NCBI GenBank assembly: GCA_016842005.1
Contig: JAENYD010000009.1
Coordinates: forward strand, 20,315-84,314
Source: Clostridium thermobutyricum
GTDB lineage: Bacteria > Bacillota > Clostridia > Ch29
Length of the DNA: 64,000 bases
Direction of reading: 5' to 3'
In this document: in pieces, positions 1,895 to 61,582 of the stretch
Layout of the letters: each line of letters begins with the position of its first letter
Numbering within the stretch: the stretch's first letter is position 1
Translations under genes and position numbers: made by a program
Notes under the pieces: model-generated
Database searches by the model: none
What the model was told of the DNA's origin: nothing
Seen by the model: the letters and a program-made list of their open reading frames with translations, nothing else

Positions 1895-3229
1895 ATGACC
1901 AGGAAAATGAGCAAGGAAGACGTTTTAAAAAAGGCAAAGGAGCTGGATGTACAGTTTATTCACCTGCAGTTCACCGACATACTGGGGGTAATGAAGAATG
2001 TGGCCATAACTATTGAACAGCTGGATAAGGCCCTGAACAACGAGATAATGTTTGACGGTTCTTCCATTGACGGCTTTGTACGAATAGAAGAATCCGACAT
2101 GTACCTGAGACCCGACCCGTCAACATTCATGGTATATCCATGGGCTGCCCCGGTTAAAGAAGCAAGGCTCATATGCGATGTATACGACAAGGACAACAAG
2201 CCCTTCACAGGATGTCCCAGAAATATCCTGAAGCAAGTGCTGAAAGAAGCGAAAGATATGGGTTTCATAATGAATGCAGGTCCGGAATGCGAATTTTTCC
2301 TCTTCCAGACCGATGAAAAAGGGAACCCATCCCTGGAAACCCAGGATAATGCGGGATACTTTGACCTTGCCCCGGTGGACCTCGGGGAAAGCGCCCGGAG
2401 GGATATGGTGTTAACCCTGAAGCAAATGGGCTTTGAAATAGAGGCATCCCACCATGAAGTAGCCCCTGGCCAGCATGAGATTGATTTCAAATATGACGAT
2501 GCGCTGACCACCGCCGACAACATCATGACCTTCAAGATGACAGTAAGGACTATTGCCCAGCGGCACGGTCTGCATGCCACATTTATGCCCAAACCTATTT
2601 TCGGCATTAATGGGTCGGGGATGCACACCAACCTGTCCCTGGCCACCCTAGACGGGAAAAATGCCTTTTACGATGAAAAGGGAGAGCTGCAACTATCTGA
2701 TATAGCCTTCCACTTCCTTGGTGGAGTGCTTAAATATGCCAGGGCCTTTGCCGCCATTACCAATCCCACCGTAAATTCGTACAAAAGGCTGGTGCCGGGA
2801 TATGAAGCCCCTGTTTACATCGCATGGTCGGCTTCCAATAGGAGCCCCCTTGTAAGGATACCGGCAAAAAGGGGAAATTCCACCAGGCTTGAGCTGAGAA
2901 ACCCGGACCCCTCAGCAAACCCCTACCTTGCCATGGCGGTTATCCTGAAAGCGGGTCTTGACGGCATAAAGAACAAAATCCAGCCCCCTGCCCCTGTGAA
3001 CAGCAACATTTACCACATGAACGAGCTGGATAGAGAGGAAAAGGGTATACAGAGCCTTCCCGGCAGCCTGTTTGAGGCACTCAAGGAACTGTCAGGTTGC
3101 GAACTCATCAAATCGGCCCTGGGACCCCACATTTATAACCGGTTTGTTGAAGCAGCCATGATAGAGTGGAATGAATACAGGACCAGAGTAACCAAATGGG
3201 AAATAGAGAAATATCTCACCAAGTTCTAG
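1895..3229 (+). CDS. glnA: Glutamine synthetase type I
   Basis: 444-aa ORF with AAAGGAGG RBS. Motifs typical of GSI ([30 protein letters not shown]). Confidence 0.95.
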
Positions 3230-3240
3230 TATAAACAGGA

Positions 3241-3356
3241 TTCTATGCTTCAGGTGGAGTGTTAACCCCATCTGAAGCATAGAATATGTTATCCCGGGAC
3301 GTAGCGCCCCTTATCTGCCACCTAAGAGGATGGATGTATTGGTGGCGGTAGTCATC
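3241..3356 (+). repeat. Structured repeat element, copy A (long hairpin plus conserved GTTATCC..GACGTAGCGCC..GGCGGTAGTCATC blocks)
   Basis: Perfect 13-bp outer stem (ttctatgcttcag / ctgaagcatagaa) with an inner stem. Homologous to the copies at 25131 and 41088. Confidence 0.6.
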
Positions 3357-3446: not shown

Positions 3447-4391
3447 CTAAATCATGCTCAACAGTATTCCGTACAGCGGTATAACAAACATACTTACCAG
3501 GGTTGAGACACTGAACCCCACCGCTGCATATTCACAATCCCCTTCATATGCCTGTGCAACAATGGTACTCTGAGCCATAACCGGCATAGACGCTTCCATT
3601 ACAAATACCCTGGTCATAAGCTGGGGCGCGGAAAAATAGTATGACAGACCAAGGACCAGTAAAGGACAGAACAAAAATCTCCCTATCAGCAGTACGGTTA
3701 CATCTGTGCTCAGCCTGATTTTTCCGGGCCCTATACTGTAAATTATGATGCCTATAAATATCATGGACAGTGGAGTGGTCATGCTCCCTATGTACCTTGC
3801 AGTATCCATGACAAACTCCGGTGGCCGGATCTCCGATACAATAAAAACAATAGCAACCAAAAATCCCATTAATGGAGGCGAAAAGATTTTTCTTAATGTT
3901 TCAGCAACAGATATTGTTTTCGCCTTTTCCCTGCTGCTACGTCGAATAGAATATATGCCGATGGTCCAGAACAAGGTAGTGTTAGCAATATAATAAAGCA
4001 GTACCAAAGGAACACTTTCATCTCCGAACAACGCCAGATTTACAGGCAATCCTATAAAAACAGTATTGGAAAAAACAAACATGGCCTGGAAAATACCCCG
4101 CCTCTCAGGCTCCATCTTCAGTAACTTTGCCAGAATTACAGCAATCCCGTAGGAGAGAATCATGCCTGCAAGGGGAATAATCAGTCCTCTGCCTGAACTC
4201 ACCAAATTCTCTTTGCTCAGGGTATTAAGAATATTCCAGAACATGAAAACAGGCAGTGAAACGTAAAGGATTAATCTCGAAAATAATTCGGATGCATTCC
4301 GGTCAAACCACTTTTTATAGGATAAAAAATAACCTGTGCCAATCATCAGTGCAATAGTCAATATGCTCTGTACCGCATCTGTTGCAGCCAC
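3447..4391 (-). CDS. AEC family (auxin efflux carrier / malate permease-like) transporter
   Basis: 314-aa polytopic membrane ORF with an AEC-like sequence. Confidence 0.7.
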   Translation of the reverse strand: MAATDAVQSILTIALMIGTGYFLSYKKWFDRNASELFSRLILYVSLPVFMFWNILNTLSKENLVSSGRGLIIPLAGMILSYGIAVILAKLLKMEPERRGIFQAMFVFSNTVFIGLPVNLALFGDESVPLVLLYYIANTTLFWTIGIYSIRRSSREKAKTISVAETLRKIFSPPLMGFLVAIVFIVSEIRPPEFVMDTARYIGSMTTPLSMIFIGIIIYSIGPGKIRLSTDVTVLLIGRFLFCPLLVLGLSYYFSAPQLMTRVFVMEASMPVMAQSTIVAQAYEGDCEYAAVGFSVSTLVSMFVIPLYGILLSMI

Positions 4392-4483: not shown

Positions 4484-4556
4484 TTGTCAAAACTGTCAAG
4501 GGGACGGTTCTTCTGACAACGTTGTCAGAAGAACCGTCCCCTTGACAATCCCCTTG
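4484..4556. repeat. Long perfect palindromic repeat (ggggacggttcttctgacaacgttgtcagaagaaccgtcccc plus flanks)
   Basis: Stem of about 27 bp. Second copy at 7262-7365. Confidence 0.8.
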
Positions 4557-4564
4557 ATATCTTT

Positions 4565-5815
4565 CTATATCCTGTATACCTTGCCGCCCAGGCTTTGGAA
4601 TTTCTTCTCAATATCGGTATAACCCCTATCGATATGGTACACGTCAGTTATCTCGGTTCTCCCCCGGGCCGCCAGCCCCGCAAGAATAAGGGCTGCACCC
4701 GCCCGCAGGTCTGTAGCCTTCACCGGGGCACCGGTAAGCTCAGGAATACCCTGCACCACGGCGCTTCTGCCATCAATCTTTATATTTGCCCCCATTCTCC
4801 TTAATTCGTTCACGTGCATAAATCTATTATCAAAAACAGTTTCTATTATTACGCTTGTTCCCCGCGCCACACTCATCAGGGCCATCATCTGCGCCTGCAT
4901 ATCCGTAGGGAAGCCTGCATAAGGCAAAGTTTTAATGTCAACGGCCTTTACCCTTTCGGGTGCATATACCCTGAGCCCGTTTTCCACTTCCTGTATTATT
5001 ACCCCTGCTTCCTTCAGTTTTGCTATAACCGACATAAGGTGATTTATGACAACGTTTTCCACTATGATATCTCCCCTGGTTATAGCGGCAGCAACCATGT
5101 AAGTACCCGCCTCAACCCTGTCGGGAATTACTGTATGAGTGCACCCTTTAAGTTCTTTTACCCCGTCAATCTTTACGGTATCAGTACCTGCACCTTTAAC
5201 GCAGCCACCCATCTTATTTATAAAGGTTGCCAGGTCCACTATTTCCGGTTCCTCGGCAGCATTCTCTATAACGGTTCTACCCTCCGCCAGAGCGGCTGCC
5301 ATCATTATATTCTCGGTGGCGCCCACGCTGGGAAAATCAAGATATACCCTGTCTCCCTTAAGCTTTTTGGCACTGGCCTCAATATACCCGTGCCCCATTG
5401 TTATCTCAGCCCCCAGGGCACTAAAGCCTTTAAGGTGCAGGTCGATAGGACGGGTTCCTATGGCACATCCTCCCGGGAATGATATCCTTGCCTTGCCCAT
5501 CCGTGCCAGTAATGGACCCAGAACTAAAAAAGAAGCTCTCATTCGTCTCACCAGCTCATAGGGAGCTTCGTAATTATCTATATTTCTGGAGTTGACTTCC
5601 ATCCGCATATTGGACAATTTCTTGATATCCGCACCTAATGAAACCAGTACCTCACTCATCACTTCAACATCATTGAGAAAGGGTATGTCTTCAAGTATAC
5701 ATTTCTGACCCGAAAGCAAACTGGCTGCTATCACAGGGAGTACTGCATTCTTTGCGCCACTTATCCTGACAGTCCCCCTAAGCGGAGGACTGGATTCTAC
5801 AACTATCTTAGACAC
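4565..5815 (-). CDS. murA: UDP-N-acetylglucosamine 1-carboxyvinyltransferase
   Basis: 416 aa with an N-terminal [11 protein letters not shown] motif. Sits downstream of the atp operon, as murAA does in Bacillus. Confidence 0.95.
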
Positions 5816-6629: not shown

Positions 6630-6816
6630 TACCTCCCGGTAACAATCTTTTCTGGATTATTTCCATATTCCGGGAGCAGTATACCCGGATATTCCGTACA
6701 AACTTATTATTTCTAAAGCAATCCGGGCTATATACGCATGATAATCATGTAATACTTTCCTCAGCGGGCGTCTAATTATGAATTTTACTGCTTATTTAAA
6801 AAATTGTCAATATTTT

Positions 6817-7239
6817 TCATCCATTTCTGAGAGTGTTGGCGACCCGTATACGGGTTAAAGCCCTCTGAAGAGAAAGCCTTGCCCTCAATACGTCTATGTC
6901 GTCCCTGTCCTGCTGCCCCAGTCTCTCCTCAGCCCTTTCCCGGGCCCTTTGGGCCCTGTCTACGTCAATCTCTCCAGGCCATTCAGCCGCATCCACCAGA
7001 ATAGTGACTTCTTCGGGCATCACTTCCATCAATCCCTGGGCAACAGAGGCTTTCCTGCTTTCATCCTCCCCCGTTCTTATTGTAAGGACACCGGGAACCA
7101 GCGGTGTAACCAGGGGACTATGGTCATACAAAATACCCAGATAGCCTTCCCAACCTTTTACCGTAACACCTGCCACATCTCCCGAAAAAAACGTTTTCTC
7201 CGGCGTCAGAACCCGCAGTTTAATATTCTTCAAGACCAA
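6817..7239 (-). CDS. atpC: F1 ATP synthase epsilon subunit; TTG start
   Basis: 140-aa ORF at the end of the atp operon. The start codon reads TTG, with GGAGGGAGAG upstream. Confidence 0.85.
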   Translation of the reverse strand: MVLKNIKLRVLTPEKTFFSGDVAGVTVKGWEGYLGILYDHSPLVTPLVPGVLTIRTGEDESRKASVAQGLMEVMPEEVTILVDAAEWPGEIDVDRAQRARERAEERLGQQDRDDIDVLRARLSLQRALTRIRVANTLRNG

Positions 7240-7261
7240 AAACTCTCCCTCCGACTATCAG

Positions 7262-7365
7262 ACCTACCAAGGGATTGTCAGGGGGACGGTTCTTCTGACA
7301 ACATTGTCAGAAGAACCGTCCCCCTGACATCGAAGAACCGTCCCCCTGACATCCCCCTGACAGCC
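7262..7365. repeat. Palindromic repeat copy with a partially duplicated arm, inserted between atpD and atpC
   Basis: Same core as the 4500 copy. The tail cgaagaaccgtccccctgaca reiterates one arm. Confidence 0.8.
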
Positions 7366-8766
<1,401 letters not shown>

Positions 8767-25055: not shown

Positions 25056-25130
25056 CTAGTAATCACCACCTCATCTGAAAAATATATTTATATCTATGGA
25101 ATCTATGGAGCTGTTTATTGTCCCATAAAC

Positions 25131-25255
25131 GGGATTCCTGGCCTCGGGTGGGGTTTTAACCCCATCTGAAGCTTAAAATCCGTTATCCAGAGGCGTAGCG
25201 TCGCTTATCTCCCTTCCTAAGAGAACGGGAATATTGGGGTCGCTAACCACCGGGA
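25131..25255 (+). repeat. Structured repeat element, copy B
   Basis: Same block order as copies A and C. The hairpin is preserved through G-U pairs. Lies 76 nt upstream of ntpF. Confidence 0.5.
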
Positions 25256-28837: not shown

Positions 28838-28853
28838 CGAAAAGGCACAACAA

Positions 28854-28912
28854 CAATACCGATGCAATATTGCATAATATCAGGCAATATTGCATCGGTA
28901 TTGTGCAATATC
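28854..28912. promoter_or_regulatory. Nested 20-bp perfect inverted repeat containing two or three copies of TGCAATATTGCA
   Basis: caataccgatgcaatattgc ... gcaatattgcatcggtattg. No T-run follows. Confidence 0.4.
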
Positions 28913-41067: not shown

Positions 41068-41087
41068 CCGCTGTCAGTTTAGATAAA

Positions 41088-41211
41088 CAGGATTCTTAGC
41101 TTCAGGCGGGGTGTTAACCCCGCCTGAAGTTTAGAAACCGTTATCCAGGGACGTAGCGCCGCTTATTATCTCCCGCCTGAAAAGGCAGGGGTATTAGCGG
41201 CGGTAGTCATC
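41088..41211 (+). repeat. Structured repeat element, copy C
   Basis: Perfect 12-bp hairpin (cttcaggcgggg tgttaa ccccgcctgaag) plus shared downstream blocks. Lies between the rpmE terminator and the DUF1385 gene. Confidence 0.6.
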
Positions 41212-53176: not shown

Positions 53177-53354
53177 ATATTCGCACCTCCATTTTTATAC
53201 TCATCCATGCAGCGTTTAATAATAGGCAACACCTTCGGCTTATTAAAGTATATACTACAATATACCACAATTATACTCAAAATTACAAGTATTTCGGAAA
53301 CTAATATGATTATATTGAAACGGAGCCTGTCCAGGCTCCGTTTCAATATAATCA

Positions 53355-54326
53355 TTAAATGGCGTAATCAGGCTTTTTGTCCAGCCTGTGGATGGCCTCA
53401 ATAAACCTTATGGTGCCGGTTTCGGCCCTCATAATTACCGAATGGGTCCTGGCCTTGTTGTTCCCGTAATAAACCACTCCCCTGAGCAGTTCCCCGTCCG
53501 AGACCCCGGTGGCTGCAAAAAAGGCCTCATTACTCTTCACCAGGTCATTGAGATAGAACACCCTGTTCATATCTTCTATGCCCATTTTCAGGCATCTTTC
53601 CTTTTCTTCCTGGCTGTATGCAACCAGCCTGCCCTGGAAGTCGCCTCCCAGGCATTTCATGGCCACAGCGGCTATAACCCCTTCCGGGGCCCCTCCGATA
53701 CCCAGAAGCATATCAACACCTGTGTGCTCGAAGCCTGTAGCTATGGCAGCGGCAACATCCCCGTCTCCGAACAGCTTTATCCGGGCCCCCATTGTTCTTA
53801 TCCTGGCAATAGTCTTTTCATGTCTCGGTCTGTCCAGCATGGTTATGGTCAGATCGGATATATCCTTATCCAGGGCCTTGCTCAGATTCCTTATATTGTC
53901 TTCCAGGGGGGCGGTAATGTCTACAACCCCTTTACCCTTGGGTCCCACTGCCAGTTTGTCCATATACATGTCCGGGGCGTGAAGGAGGCATCCTTCGGGG
54001 GCCAGGGCCACCACCGCTATGGCATTGGGCCGCCCTTTGGCTATAAGATTGGTGCCGTCCAGGGGGTCCACGGCAATGTCAACCTTCGGGGCATCCCCGT
54101 CCCGGCAGCCGATTTTCTCTCCTATGTAAAGCATGGGGGCCTCATCCATCTCCCCCTCCCCGATAACCACTGTCCCTTCGATGCACAGTGTATCGAACAT
54201 CTGCCTCATCCCGTCCACTGCCGCCTGGTCAGCTGCATTCTTGTCGCCCCTGCCCATGTATTTAGCTGCCCTCAAAGCGGCGGTTTCGGTAACCCTCACA
54301 AGATTTAAAGCAAGGTCTCTATTCAT
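53355..54326 (-). CDS. glpX: Fructose-1,6-bisphosphatase class II
   Basis: GlpX-like. Start MNRDL with a GAGGAGGGTG RBS. Confidence 0.9.
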   Translation of the reverse strand: MNRDLALNLVRVTETAALRAAKYMGRGDKNAADQAAVDGMRQMFDTLCIEGTVVIGEGEMDEAPMLYIGEKIGCRDGDAPKVDIAVDPLDGTNLIAKGRPNAIAVVALAPEGCLLHAPDMYMDKLAVGPKGKGVVDITAPLEDNIRNLSKALDKDISDLTITMLDRPRHEKTIARIRTMGARIKLFGDGDVAAAIATGFEHTGVDMLLGIGGAPEGVIAAVAMKCLGGDFQGRLVAYSQEEKERCLKMGIEDMNRVFYLNDLVKSNEAFFAATGVSDGELLRGVVYYGNNKARTHSVIMRAETGTIRFIEAIHRLDKKPDYAI

Positions 54327-60961: not shown

Positions 60962-61582
60962 TCATTGGAGTGCATCCTCGATAAAACCAGAAGAACCGTC
61001 CCTTTTGTTTTCTCTGTTTTTTATCCCGTGCAGATAGTAGTCCACCATTTTATCAAGGGCCTTTACGTCCATCTCTTTATCCAGATGCATCATTATCCCG
61101 ACTTCTTTTAAGATACCCATGAACAGCATCCCGGCCAGATAGGGGTCAACTTCTCTGAATACTCCTTTTTCCATGCCTTCCTCAATGATTTGAACTATAA
61201 AATTCAGGACTCTTCCCCTGAACAGCATAAACTTATCGAATATATCACCGTGGGTTTCCCAGGTACTGCGTATTATCAACCGTGCCATGTCCCTGTAATT
61301 CTCCACAAAGGCATAATGGAGAAATACAAAACTCCTCAGCTTCTCCCCGGCATCTTCTATGTTTTCCAGTTTTTCCGCCGTATGGGCCAGAAACATCTCC
61401 AGACCGCCGGATATCATTTCATCAAAGAGCTGTTTCTTGCTGCTGAAATATTCGTATATGGTGCTTTTGCCAATACCCGCTTCCAGGGCGATATCCTCCA
61501 TCCTGGCCCTGTGGAACCCCATATTTCCGAAAACCCTGGCCGCCGCCTCCAGTATTTCATCTCTTCTCCCTTTTTCTCTCAA
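60962..61582 (-). CDS. TetR/AcrR family transcriptional regulator
   Basis: N-terminal HTH (IALEAGIGKSTIYEYF). Confidence 0.9.
   Translation of the reverse strand: MREKGRRDEILEAAARVFGNMGFHRARMEDIALEAGIGKSTIYEYFSSKKQLFDEMISGGLEMFLAHTAEKLENIEDAGEKLRSFVFLHYAFVENYRDMARLIIRSTWETHGDIFDKFMLFRGRVLNFIVQIIEEGMEKGVFREVDPYLAGMLFMGILKEVGIMMHLDKEMDVKALDKMVDYYLHGIKNRENKRDGSSGFIEDALQ

Follow-up and report, generated by a model that had tools for sequence, protein, structure and literature searches.

The question raised by this locus was why atpD and atpC, the genes for the F1 beta and epsilon subunits, are separated by a long palindromic spacer, and what kind of element fills it. The locus lies in a 64-kb stretch of DNA, which was analysed as a whole and is referred to as the window. 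All genes at the atp locus were oriented on the minus strand. According to the ORF and Pfam assignments, atpD occupied 7366-8754 (-), with a TAA stop at 7366-7368, and atpC occupied 6817-7239 (-), with a TTG start at 7239; a DUF1779/SpoIIT-like gene and murA were located downstream of atpC. The atpD-atpC spacer covered 126 nt (7240-7365). The long perfect palindrome that the first-pass annotation had described in this spacer was confirmed by a repeat search, in which two arms of 26 nt each (7276-7301 and 7304-7329) were 100% complementary and 2 nt apart, giving a palindrome at 7276-7329. The same segment formed a head-to-head, REPIN-like doublet on both strands, in which two 25-nt units surrounded a 4-nt centre. 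Unit 1 was TGTCAGGGGGACGGTTCTTCTGACA (7276-7300, + strand, G-rich sense), which was the reverse complement of unit 2 (7305-7329). The re-duplicated arm noticed earlier was also present, as an extra partial unit at 7332-7353 (-) that formed an exact 22-nt direct copy of 7310-7331. This partial unit contained the 5' foot and the loop and was without the 3' foot TGACA. It was accompanied by an 11-nt stutter, TGTCAGGGGGA in the mRNA sense, at 7352-7362 (-), where a unit was broken off after GGGGA. The sequence TCCCCCTGACA occurred three times in the spacer, at 7319, 7341 and 7352. The element had been described as ending exactly at the atpD stop; its end was found at 7362, and a gap of 3 nt separated the stutter from the stop codon. 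The atp element is a head-to-head doublet with two truncated extra units.

The folding of the element was evaluated for RNA and single-stranded DNA. The predicted RNA fold of the 54-nt core had a free energy of -50.6 kcal/mol, with 25 bp and a 4-nt loop (z = -12 compared with shuffled sequences), and the ssDNA fold of this core had a value of -31.8 kcal/mol. The whole-spacer fold gave z = -8.5, and the G-rich strand of the unit was capable of further folding via G-T/G-U pairs. The Shine-Dalgarno sequence of atpC, GGAGGGAG at 7245-7252 (-), was unpaired in the predicted spacer fold, and the distance from GGAGG to TTG was 8 nt. There was no U-tract on the mRNA strand 3' of the hairpin, where the sequence was AAUCCCUUGG; the earlier expectation of a very stable stem-loop without an adjacent U-tract was borne out. 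In the terminator scan, the atpD-atpC hairpin was not reported as an intrinsic (Rho-independent) terminator. A weak promoter-like site, CTGACA-16-GATAGT, pointed outward at atpC. At the gathering thresholds, Rfam gave no matches in the window, and a permissive search returned only generic miRNA-like hairpins far below the thresholds. In addition, a near-consensus sigma-70-type promoter match, TTGACA-17-TAAAAT (11/12), was observed at 6782-6810 (-), directly 3' of the atpC stop and ahead of the DUF1779/SpoIIT-like gene and murA.

The same junction was compared among relatives. Besides the window's own protein, the closest AtpC among 5.8 billion proteins was 62% identical. The nearest relative had an atpD-atpC junction of 12 nt, in which TAG overlapped GGAGG, and no element was present; its murA gene was followed by an ordinary terminator, also without the element. 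The junction of Pelotomaculum thermopropionicum was 19 nt long and was free of the element. The atpD-atpC spacers in relatives measured 12, 19, 53 and 103 nt. The statement that this junction normally spans 10-30 nt agreed with the two shorter spacers and did not hold for the relatives with 53 and 103 nt. For a relative as distant as 62% AtpC identity, the lack of the element would fit either an insertion in the window or a loss in the relative. In a relative with a 54% identical AtpC (locus L117), an atpG-atpD spacer of 170 nt (820-1003) and the atpD-atpC spacer of 103 nt (2397-2501) were both filled by short tandem repeats (GATGTGA..., GCGAATGATA...), which were unrelated to the hairpin family described below. 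Hence, long intercistronic atp spacers have other origins too.

The palindrome was not confined to the atp operon. When the 19-mer core was searched with up to three mismatches, five matches were found in the window, compared with 0.04 expected. A second doublet with perfect 27-nt arms was located at 4494-4547 (both strands), 2.7 kb away, flanked by murA (4565-5815, -) and a Mem_trans permease gene (3447-4391, -). It differed from the atp doublet by a G-to-A change in both arms and by its centre. The stutter of this second copy, TCCCCTTGATA at 4549-4559 (-), was identical at 10 of 11 positions to the arm end TCCCCTTGACA, and its distance to the murA stop (4565-4567) was 5 nt. Both window copies had a common layout of stop codon, 3-5 nt, stutter and doublet. 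These were the only two clusters of the hairpin family in the window.

The spread of the family was explored by an exact scan for the 19-mer GGGGACGGTTCTTCTGACA in one genome per GTDB species, which gave at least 114 stretches. Among the matches listed, the hosts were Lachnospiraceae and other Clostridia MAGs, Pelotomaculum propionicicum with many loci, Syntrophomonas, Syntrophothermus, Acetivibrio, Desulforamulus and Atribacterota, together with single MAGs of Patescibacteria, Deltaproteobacteria and Acidobacteria. Many matches coincided with the end of a contig, a position that is expected of repeats. The hundreds of units found elsewhere, together with the second copy in the window, support the mobile MITE/REP-like insertion that the first-pass annotation had listed as a candidate; the absence of the element from the nearest relative's junction and the connection of the family with a RAYT-like Y1 gene point in the same direction. 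The opposite outcome, a spacer conserved in relatives and without further copies, was not observed. A vehicle for horizontal spread was not found in viral contigs or plasmid records: the IMG/VR viral contigs contained no match to the 19-mer, and homologues of the Y1 protein described below were rare on plasmids (21 of 72,556 records).

Units were counted as cores with no more than one mismatch in 727 kb of the stretches listed, and 289 units were obtained among these matches. The unit was about 25-29 nt long and consisted of a 7-bp covarying stem that enclosed a conserved loop, N-GGGGACGGTTC-TTN. The consensus of the 289 units among the matches listed was (g)TGTCA-a-GGGGACGGTTC-TTC-TGACA(c). 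Seven stem positions covaried (-2 to -8 with +14 to +20, z = 5-10). The outermost stem pair occurred in all four Watson-Crick combinations, and its paired fraction was 0.52 vs 0.26 after shuffling (z = 10). Alternative stems, such as GGAGACA/TGTCTCC, ACACAG/CTGTGT and AATCA/TGATT, surrounded the same loop. Furthermore, an independent set of units, taken from beside transposase genes that had been picked by their protein, showed a perfect stem of at least 6 bp in 51% of cases vs 9% in a partner-shuffled control, and 34 different stem sequences were present in this set. The loop of 11 nt was unchanged across distant anaerobic lineages. Judging from this covariation, the unit is a hairpin in which the stem is free to vary and the loop stays constant. 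No conserved tetranucleotide of the GTAG/GTGG type was present at positions -12 to -9 of the units; a GTAG at 7264-7267 (-) was situated 8 nt from the foot at the atp copy and had no counterpart at the second copy. A role of the unit as an IS end was considered for an Atribacterota contig and was rejected, because the unit there was followed by butyrate-pathway genes and not by a transposase gene.

The arrangement of the units was then evaluated. The 289 units among the matches listed fell into 184 clusters, which comprised 100 singletons, 53 head-to-head ('+-') doublets, 1 '-+' doublet, 16 two-unit tandems ('++' or '--'), 7 doublets with one extra arm like the atp copy, and 7 larger clusters. 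The '+-' form was the dominant paired form (53 vs 1), and both window copies were of this type. The width of the centre between the doublet arms varied among copies, from 0 to more than 25 nt. In other genomes of several phyla, there were also tandem copies that had a 22-24-nt period and no 3' foot. Moreover, truncated 'foot+GGGG' stutters were found 5' of 16 of the 289 units listed, compared with a background of 0.33%, and several of them, from several phyla, broke after GGGGA as at the atp copy. The re-duplicated arm of the atp copy is therefore a trait of the family.

The placement of the clusters relative to genes was also explored. Among the matches listed, 38% of the clusters lay in stop-free frames with a length of 150 codons or more, compared with 82% of random positions. 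The distance to a facing stop codon had a median of 18 nt and was no more than 10 nt in 52 of 150 cases; for a facing 5' end, the median was 110 nt. Of 395 units in the G-rich sense, 109 were located no more than 30 nt after the stop of a frame with 100 codons or more, compared with 62 of 393 units in the C-rich sense. Single units of Pelotomaculum propionicicum (L027, L032, L068 and L070) shared a longer context, TAA-AACCG-unit-CGTTTTT, directly after the stop; this A-run/hairpin/T-run context looks like a bidirectional terminator. In two Lachnospiraceae MAGs (L002 and L102), syntenic segments with 87-94% identity were differently ordered, and the repeat doublets of L102 at 753-824, 3237-3306 and 4548-4619 coincided with several of the breakpoints between the two, which suggests a rearrangement via recombination between repeat copies. 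When filled and empty sites were sought by all-against-all BLAST of the family loci, no such polymorphism emerged between near-identical genomes. The indels found were unrelated to the repeat: 80 nt had been lost between CCGGAATTT repeats in one case, and an insert of 103 nt was present in the other.

A gene was repeatedly associated with these units in other genomes. At locus L052, a unit was located directly upstream of an ORF starting with MPRTARKKSSTGCYHV, and an inverted unit followed directly after its stop. Six such Y1 genes were detected by tblastn in the 114 stretches among the matches listed, and each of the six lay between two units: the one upstream shared the strand of the gene, and the one downstream was on the other strand. 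The reverse test was carried out by scanning metagenome contigs with an alignment of the six proteins, and 80 loci with 36-66% identity were obtained. Of the upstream flanks of these protein-picked loci, 34 of 75 had a core in the expected orientation within 250 nt, and so did 35 of 70 downstream flanks. By chance, about 0.03 would be expected for each flank; cores in the wrong orientation were rare. Many protein-picked loci without the exact core had related hairpins with GGGGACGGGGTT or GGGGACAG loops. The same arrangement of unit, gene and inverted unit was present in an isolate, Acetoanaerobium noterae DSL2.

The encoded product was an HUH/Y1 protein of about 250 aa with Pfam Y1_Tnp scores of 49-67 bits. 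The best NCBIfam model was REP_Tyr_transpos with 68 bits (equivalog cut-off 80), and the IS200 model reached 17 bits. The HUH (NHxH) and Tyr (RYxxNNP) motifs were invariant. A C-terminal segment, LS.RQI...G(I/V)NRG, was conserved and gave a sub-threshold Pfam match to HTH_23 (16-21 bits vs the 24.6-bit cut-off). A 40-sequence family profile matched the E. coli TnpA-REP structure 4ER8 with E = 2.6e-7 and ISDra2 TnpA with E = 0.68, and a phmmer search with a single Y1 protein against the PDB gave only weak ISDra2 matches. No Y1 gene was found by tblastn in the 64-kb window. A target-site duplication, for which a check had been proposed, was visible at neither window copy (atp spacer and post-murA); this is expected for Y1 elements, and the signature is thus uninformative here.

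To our knowledge, work on REP/REPIN-RAYT systems has been devoted almost exclusively to Proteobacteria. REP, BIME and REPIN elements and their RAYT (TnpA-REP) genes have been described in E. coli, Pseudomonas and Stenotrophomonas (Nunvar 2010; PMC3116915; PMC3333891; PMC3479197). The present family resembles them in its short, imperfectly palindromic, extragenic units, which form singletons, inverted long-hairpin doublets and clusters, and in a Y1/HUH gene flanked by units in inverted orientation, with copies near gene 3' ends; the match of the Y1 family profile to the TnpA-REP structure 4ER8 is a further likeness. Unlike REPs, the units here had no GTAG/GTGG foot tag, and the loop was conserved instead of the stem. 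The same core was present across families and phyla, whereas REPs have been described as species-specific (PMC6006769). The protein also differed in its putative C-terminal HTH-type tail (sub-threshold in Pfam) and in its score below the NCBIfam RAYT cut-off.

A second group of known elements is formed by the TIRtrons, in which TIRYT (RAYT-like) genes are flanked by TIRs sharing GGGGWSAS (Di Nocera et al., 2013, PMC3733652). A subset of the TIRs is self-complementary and occurs at dispersed sites as singles, dimers and groups; that paper does not mention Firmicutes (0 occurrences; PMC3733652). Most TIRYTs belong to TnpAY1 subclass 2.1 and have a C-terminal DnaA_C/HTH domain (Quentin et al., 2018, PMC6006769), and no REP-like sequences were found near subclass 2.1 genes in that study. 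RAYT Group 1 is present in Clostridia, where the flanking 16-mers were only moderately abundant (Bertels et al., 2017, PMC5581495); the TIRtrons probably correspond to this Group 1. The likeness to the present family was found in the RAYT-like gene between inverted repeats beginning with GGGGAC, the putative HTH-type C-terminal extension, and repeats scattered as singles, dimers and groups, some of them self-complementary. The core GGGGACGG fitted the GGGGWSAS motif at 7 of 8 positions, and GGGGACAG of the related Y1 loci fitted it fully. The difference lies in the covarying-stem hairpin nature and the cross-phylum spread, which were observed for the family here. IS200/IS605 elements and their miniature derivatives (PATEs) likewise combine a Y1 HUH enzyme with subterminal hairpins recognised on ssDNA, make no target-site duplication and have gene-less miniature derivatives. 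Their flanking hairpins are direct, whereas those found here were inverted; moreover, ISDra2 TnpA was barely matched by the family profile (E = 0.68), and the NCBIfam IS200 model gave only 17 bits. No description of the hairpin family itself was found in the literature by full-text search with the core sequence or with the terms TIRYT and REPtron, and the core retrieved only unrelated primers.

The atp element is a member of this family, which in other genomes is associated with a transposase gene and which lies mostly outside genes, close to stop codons. Very likely, the atpD-atpC element represents the insertion of a REP/REPIN-like hairpin repeat 3 nt past the atpD stop. On sequence grounds, it is a REPIN-like or TIRtron-type non-autonomous element, of a kind that is known and in a family for which we found no description. 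The doublet corresponds to the arrangement of '+ unit, gene, - unit' with the gene removed, and it can therefore be regarded as a REPIN-like non-autonomous derivative. A hairpin that evolved in place as an attenuator, processing site or stabiliser for the beta:epsilon ratio, and that is not a repeat, would account for a very stable stem-loop between genes needed at 3:1 and for an atpC Shine-Dalgarno sequence that is free in the predicted fold. However, the same palindrome follows murA and occurs in hundreds of unrelated contexts elsewhere, and the junctions of the nearest relative (12 nt) and P. thermopropionicum (19 nt) are without the element, which makes such an operon-specific device extremely unlikely. 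The variable centre between the arms, from 0 to more than 25 nt, argues against the palindrome being a double-stranded site for a dimeric regulator or a site-specific recombinase. Such a site would explain the perfect dyad with its extra direct arm, and TTGACA/CTGACA in the arm ends; an extra arm is also known from the FRT site. Nevertheless, half of the clusters are single units, the covarying stems and the constant loop indicate a folded single strand, and the copies are at gene 3' ends and not at promoters. Hence, a double-stranded protein site is highly improbable. Operator boxes of the CtsR, LexA or Spo0A type and an integron attC site were considered as further readings and set aside. 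A classical MITE of a DDE transposase, with terminal inverted repeats and a target-site duplication, would be consistent with two abutting inverted repeats and TG...CA ends, but it hardly seems credible: a target-site duplication was not visible at either window copy, single hairpin units were as frequent as doublets, and the sole gene repeatedly bracketed by units was of the Y1/HUH type, not DDE.

A different relation between origin and function has to be weighed for a repeat that arrived selfishly and has since been retained because it reduces epsilon relative to beta, by partial termination, by blocking exonucleases or by uncoupling translation. In the malE-malF operon of E. coli, an intercistronic REP hairpin stabilises the upstream mRNA, and E. 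coli REPs near a stop codon lower the expression of the upstream gene. The atp element is similar to the malE-malF REP in that a hairpin is located between cistrons of one operon whose products are needed unequally; the effect in malE-malF was established by experiment, whereas that of the atp element would follow by analogy. Besides this precedent, retention is suggested by the family-wide position of the elements 0-10 nt after stop codons, the higher frequency of G-rich-sense than C-rich-sense units after stops (109 vs 62), and the weak outward promoter-like site facing atpC. On the other hand, the hairpin has no U-tract, relatives manage without the element, and stop-proximity could equally result from purifying selection elsewhere or from a target preference. 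We hold an exapted repeat to be a tentative possibility. The functions that had been proposed for the hairpin, as a partial terminator, a stabiliser or an RNase processing barrier, are possible consequences of an insertion and not alternatives to it.

For the preferred reading, a REP/REPIN-like insertion, the following mechanism is proposed by analogy with TnpA-REP and IS200/IS605 (PMC3333891, PMC3479197, PMC6006769). A Y1 enzyme encoded elsewhere in the genome would act in trans on the hairpin, which may be recognised on single-stranded DNA at the replication fork, and cutting and rejoining of the DNA by this enzyme would spread the copies. Copies would persist where the harm is small, typically a few nucleotides after a stop codon. 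At the atp locus, the insertion would have replaced a close arrangement of atpD stop and atpC Shine-Dalgarno sequence, of the kind found in the nearest relative, with a 126-nt spacer that carries its own free Shine-Dalgarno sequence. The most likely effect of the mRNA stem-loop (-50 kcal/mol, without a U-tract) would be that of a barrier to 3'-to-5' exonucleases. Moreover, the stem-loop may separate the translation of atpC from that of atpD and thereby favour beta over epsilon. By analogy, it is plausible, if conjectural, that the element alters the expression of atpC.

A broader reading was also considered, in which the GGGGACGGTTC-loop hairpins and the HTH-tailed Y1 enzymes form one ancient, cross-phylum REPIN/RAYT-like system (Bacillota, Atribacterota and others) that is loop-read and stop-specific. 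We regard this as unlikely. If it were true, a Y1 subclass reported to have no cognate repeats would have them, and the enzyme would read the loop and not a GTAG foot. A nick inside the loop might then be possible because truncated copies repeatedly end at GGGGA^C. Insertion specifically just after stops would furthermore give these elements a widespread influence on operon polarity in anaerobes.

With the preferred reading of a REP/REPIN-like insertion, the odd atpD-atpC spacer would be explained by ordinary selfish repeat insertion, and no dedicated regulatory device would be needed. As a feature of the atp operon, the element is ordinary, and the family is of moderate interest to specialists in mobile DNA. 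It offers a defined DNA substrate with which a poorly understood Y1 subclass can be tested, and in Clostridia-type genomes and MAGs it can be recognised as a source of contig breaks and of long spacers between cistrons. It also provides a natural test case for the influence of strong intercistronic hairpins on operon polarity in Gram-positive anaerobes.

Further repeats and partial matches were noted in the window. Four more core-like matches with no more than one mismatch were all without feet; these are chance matches, with 60985-61009 as a possible relic. The latter match, AGGGACGGTTCTTCTG on the minus strand, shared 16 of 17 positions with the core and 3' side of the unit and had no stem feet. 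It fell within the final 30 codons of a TetR-like ORF, 24 nt ahead of the stop of this ORF; it may have arisen by chance, or it may be what is left of a unit that became part of the coding 3' end. An unrelated repeat family of about 90 nt had three copies on the plus strand, at 3225-3320, 25118-25215 and 41078-41175. Its consensus was ATAAACAGGATTCT..GCTTCAGGYGGRGTGTTAACCCCRYCTGAAGC..AGAAT.CGTTATCCAGGGACGTAGCGCCGCTTAT, and the mean column identity of the copies was 84%. The changes in its stem look compensatory, the first copy starts right after the glnA stop, and no Rfam match was obtained for this repeat at the gathering score. Two other palindromes, at 53306-53355 and 28853-28904, were unrelated in sequence to the atp element; one of them had 24-nt arms with 100% complementarity and a 2-nt gap, and the other had 26-nt arms with 92% complementarity and a 0-nt gap.
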